Assembly: GCA_964477025.1 (NCBI GenBank)
Contig: CAYZDH010000003.1
Span: forward strand, 1 to 42,511
Origin: an uncultured Rhodospirillaceae bacterium
GTDB lineage: Bacteria > Pseudomonadota > Alphaproteobacteria > MPNO01 > UBA2964
Direction: 5' to 3'
Length of the DNA stretch: 42,511 nucleotides
Shown here: one piece after another, positions 14,208-34,430 of the stretch
Numbering within the stretch: the first letter of the stretch is position 1
How the letters are laid out: every line of letters starts with the position of its first letter
The notes under the pieces: model-generated
Told to the model about the DNA's origin: nothing
Databases searched by the model: none
The model's input: the letters and a program-made list of their open reading frames with translations, nothing else
Translations under genes and position numbers: made by a program

Positions 14208-14804
14208 TTATTCCGAATGTTTTCCAACTTGCCAGCCAGAAGCTGCAAGATGCCGTGTCGCGAAGTCGAGTGGCTCCTGCTCGAGATTTGTTGCTAGGGT
14301 ATCGTTGAACCGGTTTAGCCAACCAAATAGGCAGATGACCCCGACGATCTCAATGATTTGGTCGTCGTCGAAGTAGTTCTTTAGGTTTTTGATATCGGCG
14401 TCCGACACCATATTAGGAGTGGCGCCAGCTCCCTGAGCAACGTTAAGCGCCGCTTTTTCTGCATCACTGAAAAGGTCGCTGCGTTCATATTCAAATATAG
14501 CATCAATTTTTTCTTCGGTTTTACTCTTTGATTTGTTGGCTGAACCAGCAGTATGAGCCATGCAGTACTGGCAGCCTGCCGCCTGGCTTGCGATATGAGC
14601 GACCAACCATTTTAGGTCTTGAGGTACGCGTCCTGGGACACCCACTACTTCTCGTGATAGTCGTGAAAAGGCTCGCAACATTTCTGGACGGCGTCCCATA
14701 AGAAAGAAGCTATTTGGCACGAATCCTAGTGCTTGTTCCGCCCGTTCAAAAACATCCTCTAAATCTGATAATTCTTCCCGACTTTTAGGTGTTACACGAG
14801 GCAT
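14208..14804 (-). CDS. AhpD/carboxymuconolactone decarboxylase family protein (CxxC)
   Basis: LGFVPNS, ASQAAGCQYCMAH, NRFNDTLA; 3 bp upstream of the LLM gene (operon). Confidence 0.85.
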   Translation of the reverse strand: MPRVTPKSREELSDLEDVFERAEQALGFVPNSFFLMGRRPEMLRAFSRLSREVVGVPGRVPQDLKWLVAHIASQAAGCQYCMAHTAGSANKSKSKTEEKIDAIFEYERSDLFSDAEKAALNVAQGAGATPNMVSDADIKNLKNYFDDDQIIEIVGVICLFGWLNRFNDTLATNLEQEPLDFATRHLAASGWQVGKHSE

Positions 14805-15557: not shown

Positions 15558-16586
15558 TTAGGATTTCTTCTTTGTGAAGACCCGCGATTTAATCGCTTTG
15601 ATCACGTCTGGTGTAGCAGCATCAAAACCAGCTTTAATCAACTTGTTGATTTGTTTCGCTGTTACAGGTGAGTGCTCGACACGTCGTTTTACGATGTCTT
15701 CAATGAAACTTTTGTGAAACATCATCTCCGTGAAAGATTTTCTCAGAATTTTTACAACCTTTTTAGGCGTTCCAGGCGGAACATAAAACGCCTGTCCAAC
15801 TTTGAGGTTCATTCCAAGAACTTCATACATCTTAGCTTCCATCGAACCCGGTTTAAGAAGGTCGTCAAGACGTGGCACACCCTTCGCGTATTTGCTTGGG
15901 GATTTTGGACCATACATTATAACAGGTTTTACTAACCCCTTTGGAAGCCAGGTCGGACGAACTCCCGTGAAACCTGAAAGGAAGTTATTCCGGCCCATGG
16001 TCTCGCCTTTTTCGACAGACACATTCATACGCCCGCCGCCCTTGTAGCCATAGATCAACTGCATCTTTGTGCCGAGGGTGGCATTCACGAGGCGCGGAAA
16101 GATTGACCCTGAGGATGCAAAACCACTTGTTGCGATGGTTGTTGCTCTTGTTCTGAGTTCTTTCCAATCTTTTACTTTGTGTGTGTGCCAGAAAAATACA
16201 CCTGCCGCTCGTGCTGCAGGGGCGCCTAGCCAGTTAAATTTACGGGCGTCATAACGTACTTTTCTTACCATAGGAGTTGTAATGACACCGGGCGCAGCCA
16301 TCGCAATAAAGCTGCCGTCCTTAGGTGCAACATTCATCATATAGGCCGCAGATTTAGCTCCGCCCCCGCCAGGCATATTCTGGATAACTGTTTTAGGGTT
16401 ACCTGGAATAAAGCGCGCAATATTTCTTTGTACCAACTGGCAATAGACATGATAGGTGCCGCCAGAACCCGAAGGAACCTGCACCGTAATCTGTTTGCCG
16501 GCGAAATAATCTGCTGCCATCGTCGGGGCACTCATTACCGTGAGCGCAGCCGCAGCGGCAACAGTCAATTTTAAAGTTCTAATCAC
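15558..16586 (-). CDS. Bug/TctC family tripartite tricarboxylate transporter substrate-binding protein
   Basis: Signal peptide, YFAGKQITVQVPSGSGGTY, IPGNPKTVIQNMPGGGG, APKDG, GYKGGG, PPGTP; GTG start at 16586 behind a GGAGGAG RBS. Confidence 0.85.
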   Translation of the reverse strand: MIRTLKLTVAAAAALTVMSAPTMAADYFAGKQITVQVPSGSGGTYHVYCQLVQRNIARFIPGNPKTVIQNMPGGGGAKSAAYMMNVAPKDGSFIAMAAPGVITTPMVRKVRYDARKFNWLGAPAARAAGVFFWHTHKVKDWKELRTRATTIATSGFASSGSIFPRLVNATLGTKMQLIYGYKGGGRMNVSVEKGETMGRNNFLSGFTGVRPTWLPKGLVKPVIMYGPKSPSKYAKGVPRLDDLLKPGSMEAKMYEVLGMNLKVGQAFYVPPGTPKKVVKILRKSFTEMMFHKSFIEDIVKRRVEHSPVTAKQINKLIKAGFDAATPDVIKAIKSRVFTKKKS

Positions 16587-16792
16587 TATAAACTCCTCCC
16601 TGAATTGGACATTTAATAAAAGCCAAAAATTAAAGACGATAGACAAAAATCCTCTAAAGTCGAAAAAATGCTAGCATCTATAGTAAGGCACGTCGAATCG
16701 AATATTTATTACGAAACAAACTCTTAGTACAAAGAATAACGACTAAAAATCCCAACGCTTAGTTGAATGAAAATTCAATTAAAACGATTTCA

Positions 16793-17026: not shown

Positions 17027-17626
17027 TTACAACAAGTTAAATGGAATTTGTGTCGGGCCATTATAGGTCGCAATGCTTCCGTTTTCTGAATTGTAGCGAA
17101 ATTGTTTAAACGTGCCTGACTTTTGGCTACGGACTATAAATCCAATAGTACGGTGGTCTCCATTTGTTTCTTGGTGAATTTCCCAGGGAGGCACCAAATC
17201 GATGTAGCCAGGTTTGACATCAAACTCACCGTTTAATTTTAGTTCGGCTGGGCCGCTGTCAGTAGGATTGTCGTCAACACGGCTGAAACGTTGGATATGC
17301 TCGCCCCCGTCAAGCACCCCATAAAGAGTCCAGCTTGGCCCATGATCGTGGACGTTGGTCACAGAATTGGGCCCTTTGACCAACGCGTTTAAAACAAAGC
17401 CGTGGTCGGGGTCTTCATAAAATAGAAGGTTTGATGGAGGGCCATCGCCTTGTTTTGTGTCAGGCCAGCTCTTCGATTGCTGAATGAGTGAGGGATTGGC
17501 TAGTAGAGTTTTCAGGTCCTCCGAAACGCTTTGCCATAAGTCTGCCCCTTCCTTACCATCTGCAAAATGCCCCCGTATTGCTTCAACGAAGTTCTGAATG
17601 GTCTCAGGAAGAGTGTTGGTTGGCAT
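17027..17626 (-). CDS. Cupin, cysteine/thiol dioxygenase-like (3-His)
   Basis: LFYEDPDHGFVLNAL, VHDHGPSWTLYGVLDGGE, WEIHQE; ATG at 17626 with GGAG RBS. Confidence 0.7.
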   Translation of the reverse strand: MPTNTLPETIQNFVEAIRGHFADGKEGADLWQSVSEDLKTLLANPSLIQQSKSWPDTKQGDGPPSNLLFYEDPDHGFVLNALVKGPNSVTNVHDHGPSWTLYGVLDGGEHIQRFSRVDDNPTDSGPAELKLNGEFDVKPGYIDLVPPWEIHQETNGDHRTIGFIVRSQKSGTFKQFRYNSENGSIATYNGPTQIPFNLL

Positions 17627-17958
17627 GTCTGCAAACTCCAATAGGCAAAATGAACCTAGAATGTTGTTTGGGTTCCTATAGCAACCCAAAATACCCAATA
17701 AGCAACAGTTTTGATAGGTGGAAACAACAGCCGTCGTTCATAGAAATACTAAGAGGTCGAAGTATTTTCAATTAATTAATTAATTTTTCCATGTTTTCTA
17801 GGGGTTTCAGGGTATTTTTTGAGAAATGCAGGCTTGCATTTCATAGCCGAGCCACGTAAACATACCGTCAAATTGGGCGCTCGACTTTTCGCTGCATTTA
17901 GAAAAAAGATAACGGATTTCGGGTATTTGACGATCACAGAACGGATTAGGAGATAAAA

Positions 17959-19548
17959 ATGGCTACTGCCAGAGAACAACTCAAACCAACGCCTGTAACG
18001 GACTCCCTTCGTGATCTGCGTTCCACAATCGACTTCCTGAAACAGGAGGGGGACATTATCGAAACCGATACCGAGGTTGATCCTGATCTCGAGATTACTG
18101 GTGTCCAGAAGCATTTAGATGGCGCATGCCCGCTTCTGTTCAACAACGTTAAAGGAAAACCTAACCACCGGGCTGTCACCAACTTATTTTCTGACCAGGG
18201 TGTTATGTGTAAGCTATTCGGCGTCAATGGTATGCAGGAAATGACGCTGGCTATTGCTAATGCAATCCGTAACCCGCTACCACCGGTTGTGGTTGATTCT
18301 AAAGATGCCCCTAGCCACGAAGAGGTAATTCTTAATCCGGCTGATGTTAATGAACATATGGTGCCAATTCGCCATACAACTTACGAATCAGAATTGACGG
18401 TAGGGTCTGGGCAACGTCTATTCGCTGGCGAATACTTCGAAGGCGGCACAGATATGGCCTACAACAGAATGAATTTTCGTTGGGGCAATGTCGGGACGTT
18501 CCAGATCTCGCCTGGTTCTCATGGCTGGCAGGTTATGGCTAAGCATTATCGCGATGATGAGCCAATCCCTTTGACTATGAACTTCGGCATCCCTTATGGG
18601 CCGAACCTTCTGGCTGGTGCTGGGTTTGACTATGTCATTCTGCCCACTGGTTGCGACGAACTAGGCGTCGCGGGGCGTTTGATTGGTGAACCAGTTCGCA
18701 TGGTTGAAGCCAAGACTGTTCCAGGTGCTTATGCATTAGCCGATGCGGAGATTACTCTTGAAGGTTACCTGCATCCGCGCGACCGCAGGTATGAAACAGC
18801 AGAATCAGAAGAAGCGGGGGTGCAGGGTCGCTTCCACTTCCATCCCGAATGGGCTGGTTACATGGGTAAGGCTTATAAAGCACCAACTTTCCATGTTACG
18901 GCCGTTACCACGCGTGCCCGGGAGTCTAAGCCAATTGTTTTCCCGCTTGGCGTTCACACTATGGATTGCCAGAATATCGATACAACGGTGCGCGAAGCCG
19001 CGATGTATGAGCTCTGTGAGCGCATGCAGCCGGGCATTGTCCAGGACTGTAACATCCCATATCCCATGACGGATTGGGGCGGCGCAATAATCCAGGTCAA
19101 AAAGCGTAGCCAGATTGATGAAGGCTGGCAGAGAAATTTCCTGTCAGCAATCCTTAGCTGTTCGCAGGGTTCGCGTTTGGTGATCGCCATGTCTGAAGAT
19201 ACTGACATCTATGATATGGATGATGTTATCTGGAATTTGACTACCCGCGTAAACCCGCAGACAGATATCTTAAACCCTATTCCTGGTGGACGTGGGCAAA
19301 CCTTTATGCCTGCTGAACGTATGACAGCGGGTGACCGTGAATGGACCGCGTCCAACACCCAGTTTGAGGGCGGGATGGGAATTGATGCCACTGTGCCCTA
19401 TGGTTATGAAAGTGATTTTCTGCGCCCGGTCTATCCGGTTGATCAAGTCTTTCCCGACAAGTTCTTTACTAAAGAACAGATCGGCCATGCCAAATCTTAT
19501 ATGACTAATAAGGGGTGGGTGCATTCATTGGCACGAACCGGCCGGTAA
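17959..19548 (+). CDS. UbiD-family (prFMN) decarboxylase, phthaloyl-CoA decarboxylase (Pcd/PhtDa)-like
   Basis: PDLEITGVQKHLDG, YNRMNFRWGNVGTFQISPGSH, GAGFDYVILP.GCDE, FHFHPEWAGYMGKAYK, GGMGIDATVP and C-terminal SLARTGR match my recall of Azoarcus/Thauera phthaloyl-CoA decarboxylases; AGGAG RBS. Confidence 0.85.
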   Translation: MATAREQLKPTPVTDSLRDLRSTIDFLKQEGDIIETDTEVDPDLEITGVQKHLDGACPLLFNNVKGKPNHRAVTNLFSDQGVMCKLFGVNGMQEMTLAIANAIRNPLPPVVVDSKDAPSHEEVILNPADVNEHMVPIRHTTYESELTVGSGQRLFAGEYFEGGTDMAYNRMNFRWGNVGTFQISPGSHGWQVMAKHYRDDEPIPLTMNFGIPYGPNLLAGAGFDYVILPTGCDELGVAGRLIGEPVRMVEAKTVPGAYALADAEITLEGYLHPRDRRYETAESEEAGVQGRFHFHPEWAGYMGKAYKAPTFHVTAVTTRARESKPIVFPLGVHTMDCQNIDTTVREAAMYELCERMQPGIVQDCNIPYPMTDWGGAIIQVKKRSQIDEGWQRNFLSAILSCSQGSRLVIAMSEDTDIYDMDDVIWNLTTRVNPQTDILNPIPGGRGQTFMPAERMTAGDREWTASNTQFEGGMGIDATVPYGYESDFLRPVYPVDQVFPDKFFTKEQIGHAKSYMTNKGWVHSLARTGR

Positions 19549-19566
19549 AAATTCGGTAGTTCAGTA

Positions 19567-19595
19567 AAAAGAGCGGCTTATTGAGCCGCTCTTTT
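19567..19595 (+). terminator. Rho-independent terminator after the ubiD-like gene
   Basis: aaaagagcggctt-att-gagccgctctttt. Confidence 0.85.
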
Positions 19596-19719
19596 AGTAT
19601 GTATAGTATAAATTCATTGCCGTCGTTCTTCCTGCACTGCGCGGATCTACCGGGCGTAATTTAAGGGTCAATGAGCAGCTGAAGAAACGCGGGGGCCGGT
19701 TAATGAATTGGAGCGCGTC

Positions 19720-20745
19720 ATGTACTTAAAGAATGCTTGGTATGTTGCCGGATGGGAAAACCACCTCGATGGCGGGCTATTGGCTCGCACAATTTGTGAA
19801 GAGCCCATCGTTTTCTTTCGTGGTGCAGATGGCAAAATTGGCGCATTGGAAGACCGCTGCTGTCACCGGAGCGCCCCGCTCTCCGTTGGCCGGTTGAAGG
19901 GTAATGAGGTTGAATGTGGCTATCATGGACTGCGTTTTGACAGGACTGGTCGATGTACGGCAATTCCAACCCAGGAACTTGTGCCCCCAAGCGCGCAGGT
20001 TCGTTCTTATCCTGTAATATTAAAGAATCGTTGGATTTGGGTTTGGATGGGTGATGCCGCTAGTGCAGATGAAAGCCAAATCCCTGATTATTTTTTTCTC
20101 GAAAATGATGACTGGGCGAATATCGACGATTATTTCTACGTAGAGTGTAACTACCAAGCTTACATCGATATTCAACTCGATCAGACCCATTCGCCTTACG
20201 TGCACCCTGATACGCTTGGCAATGCCGGAAAGCTTCGCGTAAAACCCAACGTCAAGCGCGAACCTCGCGCACTAAAATGTGAACGATTATTTCCTAACGA
20301 TGACCCCCCGCCCTTGTGGGCTAAGGCAGCAAACATCAAAGGGAAGGGTGATAGTTGGAACCGATGGATATACACGCCACCAGCAACCATCATGTTTGAC
20401 GTTGGCGCGGCGCAGGCGAATACGGGAGCATTTGAGGGAAATCTTGAACACGGCATCACCGTGCATAATGCTCACGGTATTACCCCGGAGACCGCGACGA
20501 CTACGCACCATTTTTGGTCAAACGCGCGTGACTTTGGGCTTGATGACCCTGCGACCGAAGAACAGTTGAGTGTGATCCGCAAGGTATTTCGTGAAGATGT
20601 AACAATCTGTGAAGCAGTACAGAGGCGGGCGTCGCAATTCCCTGACGCACATCAGATTGATGTCGCGATGGACCACCCGACGTTACAAGCCCGCAACATG
20701 TTAGCTCGTTTAATCGAAGAAGAGCAAAAGAGCGACGCCGCGTAA
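19720..20745 (+). CDS. Rieske non-heme iron oxygenase alpha subunit, vanillate O-demethylase (VanA)-like
   Basis: YLKNAWYVA, Rieske CCHRSAPLS...CGYHG, mononuclear Fe site DQTHSPYVH and FRED, ITPET..TTHHFW; GGAG RBS. Confidence 0.85.
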   Translation: MYLKNAWYVAGWENHLDGGLLARTICEEPIVFFRGADGKIGALEDRCCHRSAPLSVGRLKGNEVECGYHGLRFDRTGRCTAIPTQELVPPSAQVRSYPVILKNRWIWVWMGDAASADESQIPDYFFLENDDWANIDDYFYVECNYQAYIDIQLDQTHSPYVHPDTLGNAGKLRVKPNVKREPRALKCERLFPNDDPPPLWAKAANIKGKGDSWNRWIYTPPATIMFDVGAAQANTGAFEGNLEHGITVHNAHGITPETATTTHHFWSNARDFGLDDPATEEQLSVIRKVFREDVTICEAVQRRASQFPDAHQIDVAMDHPTLQARNMLARLIEEEQKSDAA

Positions 20746-20790
20746 TTAAAGCTTAATTTGTGTCTCCCACGACGCTACCTTGCTCGAGGA

Positions 20791-22347
20791 CTACGGGGTC
20801 TCTGCCTGGCTCCTTTTCCATTCCATAGTTAGCACCTTTCGGTCTAACTTCCCTCGTTCATTTTTGGGTAACTTATCCACAAAAAAGACGCTTTTCGGAG
20901 TTTTGAATGGCGCTAATAACCCTCCGCAATGCTTGATAACAGACCTTTCTGAAAGTTCGCTGCCCTCACGAAGGACGACAAAACAGATAACCTCTTCGCC
21001 ATAGATTTTGTCGGGTATGCCGCATGCTGCTGCATCTATGATATCGGCATGGCGGGATAAAATATTATCGATTTCAACGGGCGAGATATTGACGCCACCG
21101 CGAATTATTAAATCCTTTAATCTTCCAACAATGGTTAAATGGCCGTCTTCATCAATTAGTCCAAGGTCACCAGTCCAATGTTCCAGCGGTAGTTTCTCAA
21201 TTTGGCCGTTAGGATGGAGATACCCCCATGATTTTTGTTGTCCAGATACTACGATTTGGCCGGCCTTCCCTTTGGCAACTTCGTTATCGTCTGCGTCGAG
21301 TAGCCTAATATTCTGATATTTTAATGGAAAACCAATAGTGCCAATCTTACGATCAATACCGCGATGGCTAGACATAAGACCCCCCTCAGAACAACCCGCA
21401 GACTGACAAATGCGGATGCCATACTGTCTCTCAAATTTAGCCCAGTTCTCAGGGAGCATCGGCGCGGAAGACGTCATAAGGAACCGGAGATGCGGCATCT
21501 CCTTTCCGTGAATATCGACGGGCCTATTTAGAAACATATTGAGGATGGTGGGCACGACGACACCAATGGTCGCGTGGTATTTTTTTACCCAATTGAAGTA
21601 ACCGCCGCGTGAAAATTTCTTCGCCATATAAACCGTGGCACCGCGGGCCAGGGGCCCGCCGAGGCTCATATTTTGCGAAGATAACCAGGTGTAAGAACGG
21701 CAATCAACGAGGCGGCTATTTTGGTCAAGCTCTACACAATCAGCAGTAGCATCATAATTCGGCCATACAGCAGAATGAGCCTGCATGACACCCTTGGGCT
21801 TGGTTTCAGTTCCTGAGGTGTAAAAGATAACAGCAATATCATTAGGCCCACAGACTTCCTCTATGTCCTCTTCGTCGGGATATGTCGACAACACGTCGAA
21901 GAAACCAGTGGATTGTCCGGCCTCATTCCAAACCCCAAGTGGGATCCATTCTGACGTCATACTGGGATCCCGGAGCTTTTCTAAGCCAAGCCCTTCTTGA
22001 ACTAAAACGATTGCGGGATTGACGGCGTGCAGTATTTCGCCAATGTGGGCACTGTTCATCTCGATATTAGCAGTGGCAATAGTAGCGCCGTAGCGTTGCA
22101 CACCAAGAAAAGCCGCGATAAATTCGATAGAGTTTTCCGACAGCATTAAGACGCGGTCATTTGCCTTTAAGCCACGAGCGGCGAAGAGGTGAGCCATGCG
22201 GTTGCTCAGCCGATAAAGTGCGTCAAAGCTCAGCACTTTTTCGTCCTGATCTATAGAAACCATGTATGGCTTGTCGCCGAACTTTGCAGCCTGATCAGCC
22301 AGCACCGTTCGGATTGATTTATATTGTGTTATTTGAGCTCCCTGCAT
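20791..22347 (-). CDS. Class I adenylate-forming enzyme (acyl/aryl-CoA ligase), paralog 2
   Basis: YTSGTETKPKG, AGCSEGG, TGDLG, GRLKDLIIRGGVNISP, LPKNERGK. Confidence 0.9.
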   Translation of the reverse strand: MQGAQITQYKSIRTVLADQAAKFGDKPYMVSIDQDEKVLSFDALYRLSNRMAHLFAARGLKANDRVLMLSENSIEFIAAFLGVQRYGATIATANIEMNSAHIGEILHAVNPAIVLVQEGLGLEKLRDPSMTSEWIPLGVWNEAGQSTGFFDVLSTYPDEEDIEEVCGPNDIAVIFYTSGTETKPKGVMQAHSAVWPNYDATADCVELDQNSRLVDCRSYTWLSSQNMSLGGPLARGATVYMAKKFSRGGYFNWVKKYHATIGVVVPTILNMFLNRPVDIHGKEMPHLRFLMTSSAPMLPENWAKFERQYGIRICQSAGCSEGGLMSSHRGIDRKIGTIGFPLKYQNIRLLDADDNEVAKGKAGQIVVSGQQKSWGYLHPNGQIEKLPLEHWTGDLGLIDEDGHLTIVGRLKDLIIRGGVNISPVEIDNILSRHADIIDAAACGIPDKIYGEEVICFVVLREGSELSERSVIKHCGGLLAPFKTPKSVFFVDKLPKNERGKLDRKVLTMEWKRSQAETP

Positions 22348-22391
22348 ACCAAAAACTTTATCACGCCGAGCGGGAGCGATACAAACTTGGG

Positions 22392-23981
22392 TTAGGTGCT
22401 ACCGAACTCTTTTTTCCAATTTTCTTGAAGAAGTAGGCGATTCATTTTGCCGCGTTCTGTTTTGGGAAGCTCATCTTGGACAATTATTTGTTTGGGCATT
22501 CGAAATTCGGGCAGCCTGTCGCCACAATGTGCGAGAATATCTTTCGGGGTGAGGTGCAGATTGGGTTTTGGTGAGACATAGCAGACCACTTCTTCGCCAT
22601 AAATCCTATCAGGCACACCAATTGTCGCTGCTTCTGCGACGGAAGGAATTTGCAGAAGTATATTGTCGACTTCTGCGGGCGAAATATTTACGCCGCCGCG
22701 TATAATAAGGTCCTTTGCTCGGCCAGTGACTTGGATGCTGCCATCTTCGAGCATGACGCCGAGATCGCCGGTCCGAAGACGATTCTCGGCATGAATGTTT
22801 TCATCGCCGTTCTCATCGAGATAGCGGTAGGCGTTTTTATTGAACCCACCAAGTTCAATTTCGCCGATTTCGCCATGGGGCACCTCAATACCGTCATCAT
22901 CAACGACAGCGAGTTTGTGATAGGTTAGCGGTTTCCCTACCGTCCCAAATTTCCGGGTAAACTCATTGGAGACAGCAATCCAACCGATTTCGCTGCAGCC
23001 ATATCCCTGCGCTACGGGTACACCATATTTTTCTTCGAACTGTTTCCATGTCTCTGGCAGGAGGGGTGCAGAAGACGACGTCATGAACCGAAGGTGCGGA
23101 ATGCTGTCATGATGAATGTCTATAGGCCTATTCAGAAACATTGCTAACCCTGTCGGATTGCAGACGCCAATAGTGACTTTATGCTCTTTTACCCATTCGA
23201 AATACTGGCTTTGGGAGAATTTACGGGCGAGAATGATTGTAGCACCTTTGGAAAGGGGGCTGAGGCCGCTAAGGACCTGTGCTGAAATCCAGTTAAAGGC
23301 GCGAAACTCAAGAATACGATCAGATTCAGTCAACGCCAGACCTTCAGCGGTTGGCGGTGTATTCTCTATGAGCTCGCGGAATGAGACAATGCAGCCTTTT
23401 GGTGCGGAGGCGGTGCCGGATGTGTAATAAATAGAGGCGTCATCTTCCCGGTGGCTAATGGGCTCCACTGGGTCCGCGGGGTGTTTTTCTAATTCACCAT
23501 AAAATCCGCTGCCGCCGCTGGCGGGTTGCCAGGTCCCAAGTTTAATCCAATCACCTGGTGTCTTTATACTCAGCGTCGCGGAATCAATTCTTTTCTCAGA
23601 ATCTTCAAAAAGGGTTAGCTTGGGCTGCAGAGCATTCAAAATTTGTTCAAAATAAACTGCGTTCATTTCTACGTGGATAGTACAAACGGTAGCCCCATAA
23701 GCCATACCACCAATGTAAACGCAAAGGTGTTCGATCGAATTATTAGACAACATAGCAATGCGATCATTTGAACCGATTCCTTTAGACTGCAAGTAGTTGG
23801 CCATTCGATCGCAGATCGATTTAAACTGGCTAAAGGTAATACCTTTGTTTTGATCAATGCTTTGTATAAAAACTTTGTTAGGATGTTTTTCGGCGTTTGC
23901 CGCAATCCAGTCGCGCAGATTAGTTTCATGCGCGCCTTTATTATTCTTTTTACCTTTAAGGGTTACGGTGTCGGTATCCAT
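22392..23981 (-). CDS. Class I adenylate-forming enzyme (acyl/aryl-CoA ligase), paralog 1
   Basis: YTSGTASAPKG, YGCSEIG, RTGDLG, GRAKDLIIRGGVNISP, LPKTERGK. Confidence 0.9.
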   Translation of the reverse strand: MDTDTVTLKGKKNNKGAHETNLRDWIAANAEKHPNKVFIQSIDQNKGITFSQFKSICDRMANYLQSKGIGSNDRIAMLSNNSIEHLCVYIGGMAYGATVCTIHVEMNAVYFEQILNALQPKLTLFEDSEKRIDSATLSIKTPGDWIKLGTWQPASGGSGFYGELEKHPADPVEPISHREDDASIYYTSGTASAPKGCIVSFRELIENTPPTAEGLALTESDRILEFRAFNWISAQVLSGLSPLSKGATIILARKFSQSQYFEWVKEHKVTIGVCNPTGLAMFLNRPIDIHHDSIPHLRFMTSSSAPLLPETWKQFEEKYGVPVAQGYGCSEIGWIAVSNEFTRKFGTVGKPLTYHKLAVVDDDGIEVPHGEIGEIELGGFNKNAYRYLDENGDENIHAENRLRTGDLGVMLEDGSIQVTGRAKDLIIRGGVNISPAEVDNILLQIPSVAEAATIGVPDRIYGEEVVCYVSPKPNLHLTPKDILAHCGDRLPEFRMPKQIIVQDELPKTERGKMNRLLLQENWKKEFGST

Positions 23982-24063
23982 TCTTATTTTGGTCCGTAAG
24001 TCGATAAATTGCCGCCCTGGAACCGGTATTTAAAACTATATTTTAGGCAAGATAATACCGTTA

Positions 24064-24107
24064 TTGACGGGGCCAAACCTGTTGCTATATATATACGTGA
24101 CTAGTCA
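24064..24107 (+). promoter_or_regulatory. Putative sigma70 promoter of boxCB with a downstream 10-bp palindrome
   Basis: TTGAC (24064-24068), N16, CTATAT (24085-24090), close to the alphaproteobacterial consensus; TGACTAGTCA at 24098-24107. Confidence 0.5.
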
Positions 24108-24263
24108 ACAATTAGCAATCGAAGTTTTTTTTGGGTAGGAAAACAGGGATGAAGCACTATATTAGTAAAATGAATGGCTAGGCGATCGGTATCCTACTGC
24201 TGGAAATAAGGATGACAAGGCGCCGGTAGTTTCGGTTAACGGGTGAACGGAGGAAATTGCAAG

Positions 24264-25973
24264 ATGGCGCCGGGAGATAATGCCCCAAACATTGAAGCTT
24301 CATCCGGGACGGGTGGAGAGCCGCTAGTCAAATTTGCTACGAGCCCAGATCAGTATAAACACTGGAATTTAACAATCGACGGGAATGTCGCGCGGCTCGC
24401 GATGTCAGTTGCTGAAGACGCTACGTTAAAGCCAGGCTATGAGCTAAAGCTGAACTCCTACGACCTCGGTGTTGATATAGAGCTATATGATGCGATTCAG
24501 CGTCTTCGCTTTGAGCACCCAGAGGTCGGTTGTGTGGTTCTTTGTTCTGACCATCCCCAAGTTTTTTGCGCTGGTGCGAATATTCGCATGCTGGGAATGT
24601 CGACGCATGACCACAAGGTAAATTTCTGTAAGTTCACTAACGAGACCCGTAACGGCATTGAAGATGCTACGGAGTTCTCCCAACAAAAATATATTTGTGC
24701 GATTAACGGCACCGCCGCAGGGGGCGGATATGAACTGGCGCTTGCGACCGACTATATCATGTTAATTGATGATGGCTCTTCTACAGTTTCGCTGCCGGAA
24801 TTACCCTTGCTAGCAGTGCTTCCGGGTACCGGCGGGCTTACCCGTCTAGTTGATAAGCGCAAAGTCCGCCATGACCGCTCAGATGTCTTCTGCACAGCGA
24901 CTGAGGGAATGCGCGGCCAGCGCGCTGTAGACTGGAACTTGATAGATGAAATCGTTCCCAGGTCCAAATTTGATGATGCGGTTAAAGAGAGGGCTAACGA
25001 ATTTGCGTCAATGTCTGATCGTCCTAAGGAAGCCGTGGGGATCTCTTTTAATACTCTCAATGTCGGGGATGATGGAGATAAACTTGCCTATGACCATTTG
25101 GTGATAGATATCGATCGTGGCTCGAATGTTGTGAATTTTTTAATTAAAGGGCCGGCTGACCTTCCCCCAAAAGATGTTGTGGACGTCGTGGAACAGGGGG
25201 TTGATTTCTGGCCACTAGCAATCGCCCGTGAGCTCGATGCAGCGATTGTCCATTTGCGGTTAAATGAAAGCCAGATTGGCACATGGGTGTTTCGTACTGA
25301 GGGCGACAATGAGGTGCTAGAGGCCTACGATAACCTTCTTGAAGCACACCAAGAGCACTGGTTGGTGCGAGAAATTACATTGTATCTCAAGCGCACGTTG
25401 AAGCGTGTAGATGTTTCGGCGCGGAGCCTGATTGCATTGGTTGAGCCTGGCAGCTGTTTCACTGGAACGCTATTGGAGCTGGTCCTGATTGCTGACCGCT
25501 CTTTCATGCTTGATGGGCAAATGGAGGGTAGCAATATTCCCGCCCCTGCGGTGCGCTTGACCGGTATGAATTTTGGGCCCTATCCGATGTGCAATGGGCT
25601 GACACGTCTCGAAACCCGCCTGCTGGGAGAGCCTGAAAAAATATCAGAGGCGAAAGCGGTTGTTGGGAGAGACCTGGAGGCACTTGACGCTGATGACGCG
25701 GGTCTCGTGACCTTTGCCCCTGATGATATCGATTGGGAGGATGAGGTTCGGCTGGCCATCGAGGAGCGCGCTAGCTTTTCACCTGATGGCCTGACCGGCC
25801 TAGAAGCCAATCTGCGCTTCGCCGGACCGGAAACTATGGAAACTAAAATATTTGGGCGCCTCAGTGCCTGGCAGAACTGGATTTTTCAACGACCAAACGC
25901 AGCCGGTCCAGAGGGCGCACTTAAGCTATACGGTACCGGGCAACGCAGCGAATTCGACAAGAAGAGGGTGTAA
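24264..25973 (+). CDS. boxC: 2,3-epoxybenzoyl-CoA dihydrolase BoxC
   Basis: GYELKLNSYDLGVDIEL, FCAGANI, KVNFCKFTNETRN, AGGGYELALA, LPGTGGLTR, FGRLSAWQNWIFQRPNA; GGAGG RBS before ATG at 24264. Confidence 0.96.
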   Translation: MAPGDNAPNIEASSGTGGEPLVKFATSPDQYKHWNLTIDGNVARLAMSVAEDATLKPGYELKLNSYDLGVDIELYDAIQRLRFEHPEVGCVVLCSDHPQVFCAGANIRMLGMSTHDHKVNFCKFTNETRNGIEDATEFSQQKYICAINGTAAGGGYELALATDYIMLIDDGSSTVSLPELPLLAVLPGTGGLTRLVDKRKVRHDRSDVFCTATEGMRGQRAVDWNLIDEIVPRSKFDDAVKERANEFASMSDRPKEAVGISFNTLNVGDDGDKLAYDHLVIDIDRGSNVVNFLIKGPADLPPKDVVDVVEQGVDFWPLAIARELDAAIVHLRLNESQIGTWVFRTEGDNEVLEAYDNLLEAHQEHWLVREITLYLKRTLKRVDVSARSLIALVEPGSCFTGTLLELVLIADRSFMLDGQMEGSNIPAPAVRLTGMNFGPYPMCNGLTRLETRLLGEPEKISEAKAVVGRDLEALDADDAGLVTFAPDDIDWEDEVRLAIEERASFSPDGLTGLEANLRFAGPETMETKIFGRLSAWQNWIFQRPNAAGPEGALKLYGTGQRSEFDKKRV

Positions 25974-25977
25974 AAAT

Positions 25978-27402
25978 ATGTCGATCGATCTTAACTCCAG
26001 AATTCCTAATAACGTCAACCTTGCCGATGACCGGCGTCTCCAGCGAGCGTTAGAATCGTGGCAGCCGAGTTTTATTGATTGGTGGAAAGAACTGGGCCCG
26101 GAAGGCACCCTAAATCACGATGTCTATCTGCGCACCGCGGTGAGTGTCGAGGCAGAGGGTTGGGCTAACTTTGGGTATGTAAAGATGCCAGACTATCGCT
26201 GGGGTATCTTTGTCGCCCCGCCAGTTGAGGGTCGCACCATTCCGTTTGGCGAACATAGAGGCCAGCCGGTCTGGCAGGAAGTACCCGGCGAATACCGGGC
26301 CTCGCTGCGGCGTTTGATCGTGACGCAGGGCGACACCGAACCGGCATCCGTTGAGCAGCAGCGTCTACTCGGTCTGACGGCTCCCTCAATGTATGATCTC
26401 CGTAACCTTTTCCAGGTAAATTGCGAAGAAGGGCGCCATCTTTGGGCGATGGTCTATTTGTTGCATGCCTATTTCGGACGCGATGGCCGCGAGGAAGCTG
26501 AGATGATGTTGCAACGCCATTCCGGTGACGTTGATAAGCCTAGGATTCTCGGTGCCTTTAACGAAGAAACCGCCGACTGGCTTTCTTATTTTATGTTCAC
26601 TTTTTTCACTGACCGGGACGGTAAATTCCAATTGTCGTCACTGGCTGAATCCGGCTTTGATCCATTGGCGCGTACTTGTCAGTTTATGTTGACCGAAGAA
26701 GCTCATCACATGTTCATTGGAACAACGGGTGTCATGCGAGTAGTGACCCGGACCTGTGAAGTGATGAACGAACTCAAGACTGAAGATCCCGAAAAAATTC
26801 GGGAGGCAGGAGCCATCGACCTGCAGACCCTGCAGAAATATCTCAACTTCCATTACAGCGTATCCTTAGATCTTTTTGGTCAAGAAGTCTCAACTAATGC
26901 CGCCAACTATTACACGGCGGGTCTTAAGGGTCGTTTTGAGGAATCTAAGATTGATGATGATCACGTCCTGAAAGATGGTCTTTCCAGGGTTGCGATGCTA
27001 GAAGACGGGGTCATTAAGGATGTCGAATATAATGCCCTACTTGCAGTGAACGAACGTCTCCGTGATGACTATGTCGATGACTGTCAGACGGGCGTAAATC
27101 GTTGGAACAAGGCAATCAAACGACATAAGATCGACTTTGAGCTTAAACTTCCGCATCGAGGTTTTCATCGCGCGATTGGTACATTTTCTGACGCTGACAT
27201 CTCTCCTGAGGGCCAGGTGATTAGTAGAGAAGAATGGGAGAGGAACGCTGATAACTGGCTACCATCTGAAGGAGACCGGGTTTTTGTTATTTCGCTTCAG
27301 AAAGCCTGCGTCGAGCCGGGCAAGATTGCTAGCTGGGTAGCGCCGCCGAGCCGCGGCATCGACGGTCACCCCTTCGACTATGAATATGTCCGGTTTAACT
27401 GA
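25978..27402 (+). CDS. boxB: Benzoyl-CoA 2,3-epoxidase subunit BoxB (diiron)
   Basis: IPNNVNL, QGDTEPASVEQQ, EEGRHLWAM, DRDGKFQL, EEAHHMF; ATG at 25978, 4 bp after the boxC stop. Confidence 0.96.
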   Translation: MSIDLNSRIPNNVNLADDRRLQRALESWQPSFIDWWKELGPEGTLNHDVYLRTAVSVEAEGWANFGYVKMPDYRWGIFVAPPVEGRTIPFGEHRGQPVWQEVPGEYRASLRRLIVTQGDTEPASVEQQRLLGLTAPSMYDLRNLFQVNCEEGRHLWAMVYLLHAYFGRDGREEAEMMLQRHSGDVDKPRILGAFNEETADWLSYFMFTFFTDRDGKFQLSSLAESGFDPLARTCQFMLTEEAHHMFIGTTGVMRVVTRTCEVMNELKTEDPEKIREAGAIDLQTLQKYLNFHYSVSLDLFGQEVSTNAANYYTAGLKGRFEESKIDDDHVLKDGLSRVAMLEDGVIKDVEYNALLAVNERLRDDYVDDCQTGVNRWNKAIKRHKIDFELKLPHRGFHRAIGTFSDADISPEGQVISREEWERNADNWLPSEGDRVFVISLQKACVEPGKIASWVAPPSRGIDGHPFDYEYVRFN

Positions 27403-27473
27403 CCGGTTTGGTCTTGCAGACCAAAATCACGCTTGAATTTGGTTCGACTGCGATCAGTGCTACTCGTAACTGT

Positions 27474-28673
27474 TTATGCACCGCCTGGCAGGTCTGTGTT
27501 TTTTCCATATAGCCATTCAACACCGGCATAAGGGTTACCCTCTTTTTTGTTGCCAAGCATCAAGTTGCGGAGCTCGCGTGTGACACCCTCAGCGTGATAA
27601 ATATCACCGTAGAAACGGGCCGTTAACTGCACTCGGCCTGTCCGCATATAACGCTTCCCAGGATAGTCAGCGAACGTGCGGACGATGTCACCGTCATAGG
27701 TTTCTAGCAAATCAACTAGGCACACGGCATCTTCCATCGCCATCCCGGCGCCGGCCGCAAGATATTGAAGCATCGGGTGTGCCGCATCACCAATTAGCGT
27801 AACCCGATTTTTGGTCCATTCCTTTACCGGGACGCGGTCGCATAATACCCACATTTTCCATACATCAATCTTGTCGAGCAGTGCTTGAACTTCCGGTCGT
27901 GTTCCCTTGAAATGTTCATATAACTCTTCGGGGTCGCCGTACTCGTCCCAACCTTCTACATATCTTTGGCTGTGGAATACCGCAACGATATTGAACAGCT
28001 CGCCGCGTCGTAATTTATAATGTACCAGATGGTTTTTTGGGCCGGCCCACAGAACGACATCTTCCATCCATTGGTCAAGTTCGGGTGGCACGTCGTTAAT
28101 TGGTAGGACCGCGCGATAAGCGATATGCCCAGACACGATAGGGTCGCCGTCCCCTATGACCTTGGCGCGGATTTTTGACCAGAGGCCGTCGGCTCCAATC
28201 AGAGCGGATCCCTCAATAGTTTGGCCTCCCGAAACTTCGACTGTCACACCGTCGCCGGTATCGTTATACCCGGCGACCTCAACGCCGGCGCGGAGATCTA
28301 TCTCTCCCATGGTTATGCATGCGTCATAGAGTACGGTGTGCAGATCTGCACGATGGATAACGGCATAAGGTTTGCCGAAATGAGACTCGAGTTTTTGACC
28401 GAGTGGCATATTCAGCACTTGTTCGCCGGTTAGGCTGTCGATCATGATAATATTTTGAGGAAAATGCGCGATATCGTGCATGGCCTTAGTGACCTGCAGC
28501 CGGTCAAACATACGGTGTGTATTGGGCCCAAGCTGAATTCCAGCGCCAATTTCGGCGAAATCGGGCGCCTGCTCTAAAACTATACTACGCCGACCTTTAA
28601 TCGCGAGCATTCTTGCAGTAGCTAGGCCGCCAATTCCGCCGCCGGCAATGATAATAGGTTTTGCGTTTGTCAT
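27474..28673 (-). CDS. FAD-dependent monooxygenase, 3-hydroxybenzoate 6-hydroxylase-like
   Basis: GGGIGGL, EIGAGIQLGPN, GADGLWS, VLWAGPKNHLVHY, GDAAHPMLQYLAAGAGMAMED, RTGRVQLTAR. Confidence 0.85.
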   Translation of the reverse strand: MTNAKPIIIAGGGIGGLATARMLAIKGRRSIVLEQAPDFAEIGAGIQLGPNTHRMFDRLQVTKAMHDIAHFPQNIIMIDSLTGEQVLNMPLGQKLESHFGKPYAVIHRADLHTVLYDACITMGEIDLRAGVEVAGYNDTGDGVTVEVSGGQTIEGSALIGADGLWSKIRAKVIGDGDPIVSGHIAYRAVLPINDVPPELDQWMEDVVLWAGPKNHLVHYKLRRGELFNIVAVFHSQRYVEGWDEYGDPEELYEHFKGTRPEVQALLDKIDVWKMWVLCDRVPVKEWTKNRVTLIGDAAHPMLQYLAAGAGMAMEDAVCLVDLLETYDGDIVRTFADYPGKRYMRTGRVQLTARFYGDIYHAEGVTRELRNLMLGNKKEGNPYAGVEWLYGKNTDLPGGA

Positions 28674-28737
28674 GCTTCTCTCTTTTGTCGCATTGCTTTG
28701 CGCTGTAGAATTTACCCAACCACAAAGGACAAACAAG

Positions 28738-30312
28738 ATGGCGAATAATCAGATCAGCGTCGATGATAGCCAAATACCGGTAAACGTCGCCTTTTCCAAG
28801 AGTTTTAACGTCGCTGTGCCGATGATTGATCGACACCTCGATGAAGGCCGGGGTGGCAAGATCGCCATCCAGGGTGATTTTGGAAGTGTGTCCTATACTT
28901 CACTGGCAGAAAACGTAAACCGATACGGCAACGTCCTTGCCTCCCTCGATCACACGAGTGGTGATCGTGTGCTGATGATGGTTAAAGATTGTCCGGAGTT
29001 TTTCTATATTTTTTGGGGCGCAATCAAGGCTGGTTTTGTCCCGGTGCCCCTTAACACTCTTTTGCGTGCCAATGACTATCAGTTCATGATTGAGGATTCG
29101 GTGTGCTCTACCATCATTTATAGTCCTGAATATGAGACAGAGGTCACGACAGCATTGGCGGCAGTAAGTCGGACCCCAAAACATTTGTTTTCCACAGAGG
29201 GCGAGGGATCAATCGGTGAATTGGTTGTCGATGCAGATACAATTCTTGAGGCCACACCAGCTACCGCAGACGATGATTGCTTCTGGCTTTACTCTTCAGG
29301 TTCAACTGGACGTCCTAAGGGCACAGTTCATGCACACAAGGATATCCCGGTAACCTGCGCCCATTACGCGGTAGGTGTGCTAGGGATAACAGAAGACGAT
29401 ATCTGTTTTTCAGCCGCAAAATTATTCTTTGCTTATGGATTAGGTAATGCCATGACTTTTCCTCTGTGGGTCGGTGCAACTACGGTATTGTCAGACTTGC
29501 CACCGAGCCCCGCAATGACATTCGAGATTATCGAGAAAAACAAAGCCACAATTTATTATGGGGTGCCGACACTGTATGCGGCACAATTACAGCAGATGGA
29601 AAACAGTATGCCTGACCTTTCGTCGGTGCGGGCGTGCGTGTCGGCAGGCGAGGCGTTGCCGGGTGACATTCTTAGGCGCTGGAAAGAGAAGACCGGTGGC
29701 TCGATCCTTGATGGCATTGGCTCGACCGAAATTCTTCATATCTTTATTTCTAATGCACCAGATGATGTTAAACCGGGCGCCAGCGGCCGAATTGTCCCTG
29801 GTTACGAAGCTAAGATTATCGGAGAAGATGAAAAAATTCTGCCACAGGGTGAAAGCGGTGCGCTTTGGGTTAAGGGTGGTTCAATAGCCAAATATTATTG
29901 GAATAATCCCAAAAAGACTGCCGAAACATTGCGGGATGGTTGGATTAATACCGGTGATACGTATTACCAGGATGATGCCGGTTATTTCTTCTATTGCGGT
30001 CGAAATGACGACATGATGAAGGTTGGAGGCATCTGGTGCTCACCATTTGAGATTGAAGCCAAGCTGATTGAGCACCCGGCTGTGTTGGAAGCGGCTGTTG
30101 TTGCGTGCGCCGATAATGACGAGTTGATCAAGCCGAAAGCTTTTATCATTGTTGCTGAAGGTGCGGATGGAAATGAAGCTCTCGCTGGTGAACTTTTAGA
30201 GCACTGCAAGGACAGTTTGGCGCGTTACAAATACCCGCGTTGGTTTAACTTTGTCGATGAATTACCGAAAACAGCGACTGGCAAGATCCAGCGATTCCGG
30301 CTCCGGGCCTAA
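28738..30312 (+). CDS. Benzoate-CoA ligase family protein
   Basis: FWLYSSGSTGRPKG, FSAAKLFFAYGLGN, SAGEALP, DGIGSTEILHIFISN, LPKTATGKIQRFRLR; AAGGA RBS before ATG at 28738. Confidence 0.92.
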   Translation: MANNQISVDDSQIPVNVAFSKSFNVAVPMIDRHLDEGRGGKIAIQGDFGSVSYTSLAENVNRYGNVLASLDHTSGDRVLMMVKDCPEFFYIFWGAIKAGFVPVPLNTLLRANDYQFMIEDSVCSTIIYSPEYETEVTTALAAVSRTPKHLFSTEGEGSIGELVVDADTILEATPATADDDCFWLYSSGSTGRPKGTVHAHKDIPVTCAHYAVGVLGITEDDICFSAAKLFFAYGLGNAMTFPLWVGATTVLSDLPPSPAMTFEIIEKNKATIYYGVPTLYAAQLQQMENSMPDLSSVRACVSAGEALPGDILRRWKEKTGGSILDGIGSTEILHIFISNAPDDVKPGASGRIVPGYEAKIIGEDEKILPQGESGALWVKGGSIAKYYWNNPKKTAETLRDGWINTGDTYYQDDAGYFFYCGRNDDMMKVGGIWCSPFEIEAKLIEHPAVLEAAVVACADNDELIKPKAFIIVAEGADGNEALAGELLEHCKDSLARYKYPRWFNFVDELPKTATGKIQRFRLRA

Positions 30313-33514: not shown

Positions 33515-33557
33515 ACCGTGGCTTGCCAGCCCCTGGGCACCAATATAACTGTTGGTC

Positions 33558-34430
33558 ATGAAGTATTGTCAGGGTCCAGATCCCAAAACCAAGGCACCGA
33601 ATTTTAAAGCCCCGCCCAGGGCATGTGATGCGCACTGTCATGTCTTTGGGCCGTCTAAAAAATTTCCCTTCGCCGAGGGGCGTTCTTACACGCCACCAGA
33701 TTCGTCATTTGAAGCGATGCAAGTTTTGCAAAATGCACTGGGCATTGAGCGTGCAGTCATTGTGCAGGCAACTTGCCATGGAACTGATAACACGGCTGCC
33801 CTCGATGCAATTTCTCGGTCTGAGGGTCGTTATAGGGGCGTGGCCATCGTTGACGACACTTTCAGTACTAGTGATTTCTTGCGGCTCGATGAGGGTGGAA
33901 TGCGCGGCATCCGTTTCTCTTTCGCCCGCCATATAGGAAACTCACCAGATTTTGAAATGGTACGACGCATTACCGAGAAGGTAGAACCACTGGGCTGGCA
34001 TGTAGTAATTTATATGGAAGCGCCGGATATTGTTGATAATGCCGATACGCTTGCTGATTTGCCGTTACCGGTCGTAATAGATCATATGGGACGTGTGAAA
34101 ACTAAAGATGGTGTCGATCAGGAGGCTTTCCAACTTTTGCTCGGCTTGCTGCGGGATAAGGAAGATTTTTGGGTAAAAATCTGTGGTGCCGAACGTATAT
34201 CCTCACGGGGCGCGCCGTTTGAAGATGCTGTGCCGTTTGCCCAGGCATGTATCGCGGCCGCGCCGGATCGGGTGTTGTGGGGAACAGACTGGCCGCACCC
34301 TAATATTGAGGGGCTGATGCCTAATGATGGTGACCTTATGAACCTGCTGAGCTTGCATGCGCCAAATGAAGCTGACCGCAACCGTATCCTTGTCGACAAC
34401 CCTGCTCGTCTTTACGGTTTTCCTGATTAG
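33558..34430 (+). CDS. ligI: 2-pyrone-4,6-dicarboxylate lactonase (LigI)-like amidohydrolase
   Basis: CDAHCHVFGP, SYTPPD, VQATCHGTDN, GIRFSFARH, IDHMGR, WGTDWPHPN, MPNDGDL. Confidence 0.8.
   Translation: MKYCQGPDPKTKAPNFKAPPRACDAHCHVFGPSKKFPFAEGRSYTPPDSSFEAMQVLQNALGIERAVIVQATCHGTDNTAALDAISRSEGRYRGVAIVDDTFSTSDFLRLDEGGMRGIRFSFARHIGNSPDFEMVRRITEKVEPLGWHVVIYMEAPDIVDNADTLADLPLPVVIDHMGRVKTKDGVDQEAFQLLLGLLRDKEDFWVKICGAERISSRGAPFEDAVPFAQACIAAAPDRVLWGTDWPHPNIEGLMPNDGDLMNLLSLHAPNEADRNRILVDNPARLYGFPD

Follow-up and report, generated by a model that had tools for sequence, protein, structure and literature searches.

A gene cluster for a candidate aerobic phthaloyl-CoA route with ligases, a UbiD decarboxylase and Box enzymes in uncultured marine Alphaproteobacteria

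Introduction

According to the accessible parts of two reviews, the decarboxylation of phthaloyl-coenzyme A (phthaloyl-CoA) is an anaerobic strategy that evolved recently for a man-made compound (PMC13040137), and phthalate is activated by CoA-transferases in denitrifiers and by ATP-dependent ligases, acting before a phthaloyl-CoA decarboxylase (Pcd)-type UbiD, in strict anaerobes (PMC13040137, PMC9516798). The latter source, in its accessible part, gives a Km of 22 uM for the phthalate-CoA ligase of D. cetonica (PCL, JCM12296_RS19390) and describes the isophthalate-CoA ligase of Syntrophorhabdus aromaticivorans as a PaaK-type enzyme of approximately 50 kDa. The pht module of denitrifiers (Aromatoleum aromaticum EbN1 plasmid 2, Thauera chlorobenzoica and Azoarcus sp. 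PA01) consists of the succinyl-CoA:phthalate CoA-transferase PhtSa/Sb, the Pcd PhtDa and the UbiX protein PhtDb; the CoA thioester is formed first, and the ortho carboxyl group is then removed to yield benzoyl-CoA. In EbN1, the plasmid genes are ordered UbiX-UbiD-CoA-transferase-CoA-transferase and are accompanied by a TAXI-TRAP transporter. A hybrid aerobic phthalate route of denitrifiers that proceeds via BoxABC was reportedly described by Ebenau-Jehle et al. in 2020. The present study concerns a gene cluster found in an uncultured Rhodospirillaceae bacterium, in which a Pcd-type UbiD gene lies beside genes for two AMP-forming acyl-CoA ligases (Lig1 and Lig2), the benzoyl-CoA oxidation enzymes BoxC and BoxB and a benzoate-CoA ligase. 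The analysed stretch of DNA (the window, 42,511 nucleotides, CAYZDH010000003.1) is an entire contig (C3) of a metagenome-assembled genome (MAG), referred to here as G000 (2.68 Mb, 272 contigs, completeness of 86%, GC content of 46.8%).

The window shares its decarboxylase family with the denitrifier pht module and would also share its logic of thioester formation followed by decarboxylation. Unlike that module, its lineage has no PhtSa/Sb orthologue, carries the two AMP-forming ligases instead and keeps ubiX unlinked. It also differs in that the Pcd gene is clustered with boxCB, a benzoyl-CoA reductase is lacking, Rieske oxygenase and cupin genes are added, and the host is a marine alphaproteobacterium; the pairing of ligases with the Box pathway is a further difference. 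The D. cetonica system likewise combines a ligase with a Pcd-type UbiD, but this strict anaerobe continues via benzoyl-CoA reductase, whereas the window would continue via the Box enzymes. A ligase and a UbiD (isophthaloyl-CoA decarboxylase) are paired for a phthalate isomer in S. aromaticivorans, too. With respect to the BoxABC(D) pathway of Azoarcus/Aromatoleum evansii, the BoxB, BoxC and benzoate-CoA ligase proteins of the window all scored above the curated cut-offs, but no canonical BoxA was found in G000 or in six related genomes. Full-text literature searches returned no description of the ligase, Pcd and Box combination, which agrees with an original prediction, made for this DNA before the present analysis, in which the combination was regarded as not known to be described. 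Based on sequence comparisons, we consider it somewhat better than an even chance (a probability of roughly 55%) that the cluster encodes an aerobic phthaloyl-CoA route leading from a ligase through Pcd to BoxB and BoxC, with o-phthalate or a very close 2-carboxybenzoate analogue as the substrate.

Results

Assignment of the UbiD to the Pcd family

The UbiD_N, UbiD and UbiD_C domains were each identified above the Pfam cut-off in the protein encoded at 17959-19548. A phmmer search against the PDB returned the phthaloyl-CoA decarboxylase of Thauera (8pmk/8oz5; E 1.7e-242, 809 bits, residues 18-529) far ahead of the next family, protocatechuate decarboxylase (E 1.4e-47), which justified the term Pcd-like used in the original prediction. 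The protein was 66% identical to the Pcd of EbN1; the other plasmid-borne UbiDs found were less than 60% identical to the window UbiD, and near 30% among the matches listed. An alignment of 14 Pcd-type proteins from all context types (alignment A1) had a mean column identity of 78%. Out of 227 alignment columns that were invariant in 20 Pcds linked to PhtSa/Sb-type transferases (T-invariant columns), 224 were retained by every one of the 24 members of the window clade, the fixed differences being Q120H, G167A and K250E. In a quick maximum-likelihood tree, in which the D. cetonica and Thauera sequences were not included and the root was unreliable owing to a very long outgroup branch, the window clade was split from every other Pcd-type row, including EbN1, with an SH-aLRT support of 100. 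The trees were rooted with UbiD paralogues that are 35-40% identical, and this rooting was too unreliable for any claim on the ancestral type of activation. By these measures the UbiD appears to fall inside the Pcd family, as predicted, although in a subclade of its own. The enzyme is predicted to be dependent on prenylated flavin mononucleotide (prFMN) and to convert phthaloyl-CoA to benzoyl-CoA and CO2. The accessible part of a preprint on the PA01 decarboxylase (10.1101/2022.07.29.502009) does not give the substrate-pocket residues. The ubiX gene, expected elsewhere in the genome, was found above the cut-off in two copies in G000 (contigs C8 and C199), both unlinked to Pcd, and in one copy in a closed relative (G001).

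A second Pcd-type paralogue was observed in G000 (C90:3406-4998, locus L032), with 69% identity to the window Pcd and 67% identity to the EbN1 Pcd. It is followed by a glutamine synthetase (GS)-like ligase gene and the genes for both subunits (alpha and beta) of a ring-hydroxylating Rieske dioxygenase; TauD genes lie in the vicinity, and this arrangement was kept in three genomes (G000; G310, contig C4, L061; G001, L070) and three metagenome loci. It is, as we take it, reminiscent of the aniline-type gamma-glutamylation systems. The UbiD of G000 nearest to the Pcd family (C19:6180-7712) was 35% identical to the EbN1 Pcd; a ligase with 48% identity to Lig1 is encoded approximately 5 kb away (C19:12790-14346), and three more UbiD genes are located on the same contig. 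Ligase and UbiD modules may thus be a recurring design in G000.

Conservation of the cluster in related genomes

A scan of species-representative genomes yielded 18 loci, 17 of them from marine Rhodospirillaceae/Alphaproteobacteria MAGs and one from a Syntrophobacteraceae MAG, with Pcd identities to the window of 86-99% and 73%, respectively. Lig1, Lig2 or both, together with boxC, accompanied Pcd in all 12 alphaproteobacterial loci that had at least 6.7 kb of downstream flank (both ligases in eight, only Lig2 in three and only Lig1 in one). Since these genes were kept together in every such locus, the arrangement is not due to chance. The identity of orthologues within the clade fell to 86% for Pcd, 65-69% for the ligases and 69-71% for BoxC and BoxB. 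Large-scale industrial production of phthalates started approximately 80 years ago, according to the accessible part of PMC13040137. As the divergence of the orthologues far exceeds what such a period allows, we infer that the cluster is older than industrial phthalates.

Ligases and transferases around the decarboxylase

No class-III CoA-transferase, ubiX or BcrB gene was present on the window contig, and genome-wide searches, which gave matches elsewhere or none, bore out the predicted lack of a CoA-transferase, a benzoyl-CoA reductase and ubiX in the window. The best matches to PhtSa/Sb in G000 were 29-35% identical, compared with 46-51% between the EbN1 and Desulfobacterota orthologues, and no orthologue was identified. 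In the closed genome G001 (4.1 Mb chromosome, Pcd 97% identical) and in two further relatives with a completeness of 98-99% (G310 and G170), the matches did not exceed 34% for PhtSb and 40%, over a partial length, for PhtSa, whereas a positive control genome (G399) gave 79% and 73%. A classical PhtSa/b pair linked elsewhere, which the original prediction had named as an outcome that would speak against it, was found in none of these four genomes.

The distribution of activating enzymes was evaluated in 401 genomes of the window's class, with the top three candidates per genome scored. A Pcd-type gene was present in 10 of the 401 genomes, including G000 (7 of 307 genera, five families). In three genomes of one family (f129), tblastn of the flanks detected Pcd-PhtSa-PhtSb (56-61% identity with EbN1) and, no further than approximately 7 kb away, boxB and boxC, and one genome of another family (f198) had the canonical UbiX-Pcd-PhtSa-PhtSb order. 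In two genomes of a third family (f51), Pcd was located beside a ligase 52% identical to Lig2, and in another genus of the family to which the window belongs, Pcd was accompanied by a Lig2-like ligase (42%) and a gene resembling that for benzoate-CoA ligase. A metagenome scan gave 490 confirmed Pcd stretches, the best 80 of which were kept as loci. PhtS-type transferases were detected in 13 of these 80, ligases of the Lig1, Lig2 or f51 type in 16, a GS-like gene in three and none of the probed genes in 48; when only the 27 loci flanked by 3 kb or more on each side were counted, the numbers were four for transferases, nine for ligases and 14 for none. A comparable sample of 401 genomes from the phylum of the Syntrophobacteraceae MAG, again with three candidates scored per genome, gave two Pcd-type matches, both of the transferase type, and no ligase-type anaerobe. 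The view that ligases are a trait of strict anaerobes therefore fails as a rule, given the 16 ligase-type metagenome loci. The lineage also turned out to be less exceptional than had been supposed, as other alphaproteobacteria (f129) join Pcd and boxCB with ordinary transferases.

In a FastTree phylogeny of 114 rows, the window clade (24 rows) contained only ligase-type loci or stretches that were too short to be labelled. Its sister group consisted of two loci with Lig1-like genes adjoining Pcd (L080 and L082, 62-63% identity) and one PhtSa/Sb locus (L081), and the transferase label required at least 7-8 changes across the tree. Because the ligase and transferase labels swap repeatedly over the Pcd tree, the activating enzyme appears to be an exchangeable module around a highly conserved decarboxylase. 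As judged from these gene neighbourhoods, the ligases of the window lineage stand in the place that is held elsewhere by TRANSFERASES.

A large clade of Pcd-type sequences (approximately 72% identical; approximately 20 metagenome loci, including L084-L095, L102-L105, L125 and L128) had no probed activating enzyme nearby. One of these loci (L092) was syntenic with the Syntrophobacteraceae locus L029 (a 1168-amino-acid MFS/spermidine-synthase/TPR protein, Pcd, SLT and a hydrolase), minus the two CoA-transferases of the latter. This clade is presumably mostly of soil origin.

Lig1 and Lig2 are paralogous (41% identical), and the nearest solved structures for both are the oxalyl-CoA/oxalate-CoA and malonyl-CoA synthetases, which activate dicarboxylates. 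Neither protein reached the cut-off of an NCBIfam model, and no model for a phthalate-CoA ligase matched. The relatives of Lig2 bore only generic names in all sources. Lig1 and Lig2 are not of the PaaK type, in contrast to the isophthalate ligase of S. aromaticivorans (PMC9516798, accessible in part). Lig2-like ligases (50-53%) adjoined Pcd in family f51 and in seven metagenome loci. Their position and the repeated exchange of ligases and transferases around Pcd make Lig1 and/or Lig2 candidates for a phthalate-CoA ligase.

Fate of benzoyl-CoA

The search for class-I benzoyl-CoA reductase (BcrB) was negative in all five genomes searched, and the AOR family, which includes the catalytic subunit of class-II benzoyl-CoA reductase, was absent from all three genomes searched. 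Since neither class was found, benzoyl-CoA has no visible fate other than the Box pathway. The boxB gene was present in 9 of the 10 Pcd-bearing genomes of the class sample and in 71 of the 391 others, although these genomes are related and the comparison is not a statistical test.

The best boxA match in G000 reached 41 bits (cut-off of 459), and boxA was above the cut-off in none of the six related genomes (G001, G310, G170, G283, G399 and G129). The search itself works, because the same model found boxA in 14 of the 401 class genomes; boxB was above the cut-off in 76 of them (this tally includes one genome flagged as unpublished, G241). Given these numbers, most boxB-bearing genomes of the class must use another reductase. 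The interpretation of the missing boxA as a sign of a defective pathway was considered and rejected, as genomes of the class that carry boxB usually have no boxA. Family scans, which did not include a boxD family model, detected no aldehyde dehydrogenase (boxD) in the window, and the Aldedh protein of the f129 Pcd-Box cluster had only matches of 22-24% identity in G000.

Accompanying genes

A cupin-like open reading frame (ORF) was located beside Pcd in 14 of the 17 alphaproteobacterial genome loci (at least 55% identity). Its translation contains an HxH...H pattern, and an Atlas feature score of 0.97 to clusters named 'cysteine dioxygenase family protein' was obtained, which serves as a lead only. 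A gene for a TctC-type binding protein was found upstream of Pcd in eight of the 17 loci (at least 60% identity), and we tentatively regard its product as a candidate uptake component of the cluster. In one relative (L014, Pcd 97% identical), a TAXI binding protein and a fused DctM permease are encoded between the Rieske gene and Lig2; they were 41% and 50% identical, respectively, to the transporter of the EbN1 phthalate cluster and recall the TAXI-TRAP genes on its plasmid 2. The benzoate-CoA ligase gene was kept in five of the 17 loci, and the 3-hydroxybenzoate 6-monooxygenase gene was kept after boxB in five of the 17, its membership in the pathway being uncertain.

Occurrence in marine metatranscriptomes

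Small shares of the cluster were contained in 13 marine/seawater metatranscriptome runs. Contigs from RNA libraries (four runs, two seawater studies), 93-100% identical to the window, covered the binding-protein gene, Pcd, the Rieske gene, Lig2, boxC and boxB, as well as the 3' end of the benzoate-CoA ligase gene and the amidase gene. The stretches without contigs (approximately 20.4-21.4 kb in Lig1 and approximately 27.9-29.5 kb in the 3-hydroxybenzoate 6-monooxygenase and benzoate-CoA ligase genes) are uninformative. The RNA-library contigs are consistent with transcription in the sea. In three runs of one seawater study, the contig depth was approximately 20-90 for the TctC-type gene and approximately 1-8 for the rest of the cluster; these depths cannot be used to rank genes.

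Discussion

In the proposed route, the substrate would be taken up with the aid of the TctC-type binding protein, or of the TAXI-TRAP transporter in the close relative. Lig1 and/or Lig2 would then form the thioester at the expense of ATP, replacing the PhtSa/Sb transferase, and the Pcd-type UbiD, supplied with prFMN by the unlinked UbiX, would decarboxylate the labile phthaloyl-CoA, its presumed substrate, to benzoyl-CoA. BoxB, probably served by a reductase other than the canonical BoxA, would epoxidize benzoyl-CoA before ring opening by BoxC. In the Box pathway, the latter reaction releases formate. The benzoate-CoA ligase would provide a second entry for free benzoate, and the Rieske oxygenase could, more speculatively, prepare a methylated or methoxylated precursor. 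As the lineage lacks benzoyl-CoA reductase, the phthaloyl-CoA route would here be a dedicated aerobic one rather than an anaerobic module that is reused in the presence of oxygen.

The reading of the cluster as a combination of ligase, Pcd and Box enzymes held in the in-silico checks suggested along with the original prediction, and it was qualified on four points: the substrate of the ligases is deduced indirectly, a substituted phthalate is possible, boxA is absent, and other alphaproteobacteria have Pcd and boxCB clusters with ordinary transferases. Several observations weigh against it. None of the probed activating enzymes was found in the majority of the metagenome Pcd loci (48 of 80, and 14 of the 27 with good flanks), and the physiology of the family is incompletely understood. 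The ligase subfamily is known by generic names only, with no member that has an assigned substrate, and a well-supported branch separates the window Pcd clade from all transferase-linked Pcds. The ubiX gene is unlinked; boxA was not found, though this is ordinary in the class, and no boxD candidate was identified. The 69% identical paralogue, which occurs in the same genome in a different context, indicates that Pcd-type enzymes may not share one substrate. The conserved O-demethylase-type Rieske gene and the adjacent 3-hydroxybenzoate 6-monooxygenase gene have no role in the breakdown of plain phthalate. Finally, the RNA-library contigs do not prove transcription, as carry-over of DNA is possible.

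Among the alternatives, the most serious is that the natural substrate of the same architecture is a substituted ortho-dicarboxylate (methoxy-, methyl- or hydroxyphthalate) from lignin-, alkaloid- or dissolved organic matter (DOM)-derived material, which we regard as a real possibility of perhaps half the weight of the preferred route. The Rieske enzyme would then demethylate or hydroxylate the compound, the two ligases would take different congeners, Pcd would form (substituted) benzoyl-CoA by removing the ortho carboxyl, and hydroxylated products would pass to 3-hydroxybenzoate 6-monooxygenase. This explanation would account for the Rieske gene that directly follows Pcd and is probably co-transcribed with it: the closest solved structure for its Rieske/VanA_C product is dicamba O-demethylase DdmC (E 1.6e-49), and 12 of the 14 alphaproteobacterial genome loci whose downstream flank is 3.9 kb or longer retain the gene (at least 60% identity). 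Less closely related VanA-type Rieske genes (41-43%) accompany Pcd in three other loci (L086, L096 and L120). Such a conserved gene may leave a substituted phthalate as a possible substrate. The presence of two paralogous ligases, the adjacent monooxygenase gene and the separate Pcd subclade point in the same direction, and the divergence beyond approximately 80 years (PMC13040137, accessible in part) implies that a natural substrate must exist. On the other hand, only three of the 227 T-invariant columns differ in the window clade, the scores of BoxB and BoxC mark them as equivalogs of the enzymes that act on benzoyl-CoA, and the Rieske gene is absent from two loci (L020 and L026) that keep the ligases and the Box genes. 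Moreover, o-phthalate itself can be a natural compound.

The two other alternatives were rated as less likely. It is improbable that phthalate is activated by an unlinked, generic class-III CoA-transferase and that Lig1 and Lig2 serve other acids: G000 contains approximately nine CoA_transf_3 genes, and one locus of the window clade (L077) has a PhtSb-like gene (31%) between Lig1 and boxC, but the G000 transferases are not orthologues of PhtSa/Sb, none of them is located on the window contig, and ligases of the Lig1/Lig2 subfamily recur beside Pcd in unrelated clades. The least likely explanation, by a narrow step, is that the genes share an aromatic-catabolism island without a common pathway, their proximity reflecting gene density (33 UbiD, approximately 22 AMP-ligase and approximately 12 VanA-type Rieske regions in 2.7 Mb, and LigB, HpcH, Amidohydro_2, molybdenum hydroxylase and other catabolic genes on the same contig), as the gene order was kept among relatives whose orthologues fell to 65-86% identity and Pcd occurs independently with boxCB (f129, L096) and with the Lig subfamily (f51, L100, L116, L117, L135, L136, L145 and L146).

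If the cluster works as proposed, with ligase, Pcd and Box enzymes acting in sequence, uncultured marine alphaproteobacteria that lack benzoyl-CoA reductase would possess a dedicated, O2-dependent, ligase-run version of the route based on Pcd and boxCB, and Lig1 and/or Lig2 would represent a new ligase subfamily for the formation of the labile phthaloyl-CoA. The activating enzyme would be interchangeable, and the divergence of the orthologues would point to a natural substrate. The cluster also provides a concrete, testable gene set for the turnover of phthalate and plasticisers in oxic seawater.

The genomes of this lineage are rich in UbiD genes: 33 PF01977 matches were found in the 2.7 Mb of G000 (on contigs such as C4, C19, C34, C49, C52, C97 and C143) and 37 UbiD-family matches in the closed 4.1 Mb G001, along with only two and one ubiX genes, respectively. 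An AMP-ligase gene was located within 6 kb of 8 of the 33 UbiD genes in G000, a genome that additionally has approximately 25 regions encoding TctC-type binding proteins. To our knowledge, this UbiD complement is among the largest; full-text literature searches found no published description of a marine UbiD expansion. The age of the cluster, the UbiD expansion, the second Pcd paralogue and the Pcd clade of presumed soil type together lend plausibility to a natural role of the Pcd family outside xenobiotic degradation. A broader interpretation, which draws on the 33-37 UbiDs, the TctC-type proteins, the acyl-CoA ligases and the two Pcd paralogues, is offered only tentatively. It holds that Pcd, rather than being a recent xenobiotic recruit, is an old and widespread enzyme by which natural aromatic ortho-dicarboxylates are turned over in oxic habitats, and that the lineage might be specialised in removing carboxyl groups from aromatic DOM rich in them (phthalate and photo-oxidation products of the benzenepolycarboxylate type), partly by ligase and aryl-CoA decarboxylase modules feeding the Box pathway. 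Should this doubtful interpretation prove true, the breakdown of plasticiser-derived phthalate in the oxic ocean would be incidental to this activity.

Gene content of the window

The genes were listed from ORFs combined with Pfam and NCBIfam family scans. All the genes named in the original prediction (UbiD, two ligases, boxC, boxB and benzoate-CoA ligase) were intact and located where predicted. The entries of that list were correct, but it omitted the Rieske oxygenase, 3-hydroxybenzoate 6-monooxygenase and cupin genes within or beside its range. The boxC and boxB genes are divergent from the Lig1/Lig2 pair, and the TIGR03225 match spans 25984-27396. The 3-hydroxybenzoate 6-monooxygenase gene is placed between boxB and the benzoate-CoA ligase gene, and the latter is followed by an amidase gene.

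Table 1. Genes of the candidate phthaloyl-CoA cluster and their immediate neighbours in the window
Feature	Coordinates	Strand	Basis and remarks
TctC/Bug-type periplasmic solute-binding protein	15558-16646	-	weak Pfam TctC match, 30 bits
Cupin-like ORF (orf223), conserved	17027-17698	-	no Pfam family; divergent from Pcd
Pcd-type UbiD	17959-19548	+	UbiD_N + UbiD + UbiD_C; PDB 8pmk/8oz5
Rieske [2Fe-2S] + VanA_C oxygenase, O-demethylase/monooxygenase type	19708-20745	+	Pfam; directly after UbiD
Lig1, AMP-forming acyl-CoA ligase, 518 amino acids	20791-22347	-	AMP-binding + AMP-binding_C
Lig2, AMP-forming ligase, 529 amino acids	22392-23981	-	AMP-binding + AMP-binding_C
boxC, 2,3-epoxybenzoyl-CoA dihydrolase	24243-25973	+	TIGR03222 equivalog, 895 bits, cut-off 712
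boxB, benzoyl-CoA 2,3-epoxidase oxygenase subunit	ORF 25852-27402, taken from 25984	+	TIGR03225 equivalog, 841 bits, cut-off 499
3-Hydroxybenzoate 6-monooxygenase-type flavoprotein	27474-28736	-	NF006021, 499 bits, cut-off 459
Benzoate-CoA ligase family protein	28648-30312	+	TIGR02262, 616 bits, cut-off 375

A further aromatic-catabolism block at 33552-41128 includes two Amidohydro_2 genes, an NMT1/ABC transporter, a GST gene, a LigB-type extradiol dioxygenase (37956-38966) and an HpcH-type aldolase (39010-39999). It looks like a meta-cleavage set of the protocatechuate/gallate type and no such block was observed in the 10 kb flanking the related loci. At the other end of the contig, a molybdopterin oxidoreductase of 927 amino acids with N-terminal Fe-S domains (648-3431, minus strand) and a Nuo51-type FMN/Fe-S subunit of 565 amino acids (4471-6168, minus strand) are encoded, with an Amidohydro_2 gene between them. 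The pair looks like an NAD-linked formate dehydrogenase, and a connection with the formate released by BoxC is only a thought. The block at 7281-14804 comprises an ornithine cyclodeaminase family gene and genes for an NMT1-like binding protein, a double DUF427 protein, a luciferase-like monooxygenase, a CMD-family protein and the large subunit of a molybdenum hydroxylase (9795-12116). These upstream genes showed partial synteny with the cluster in the relatives.

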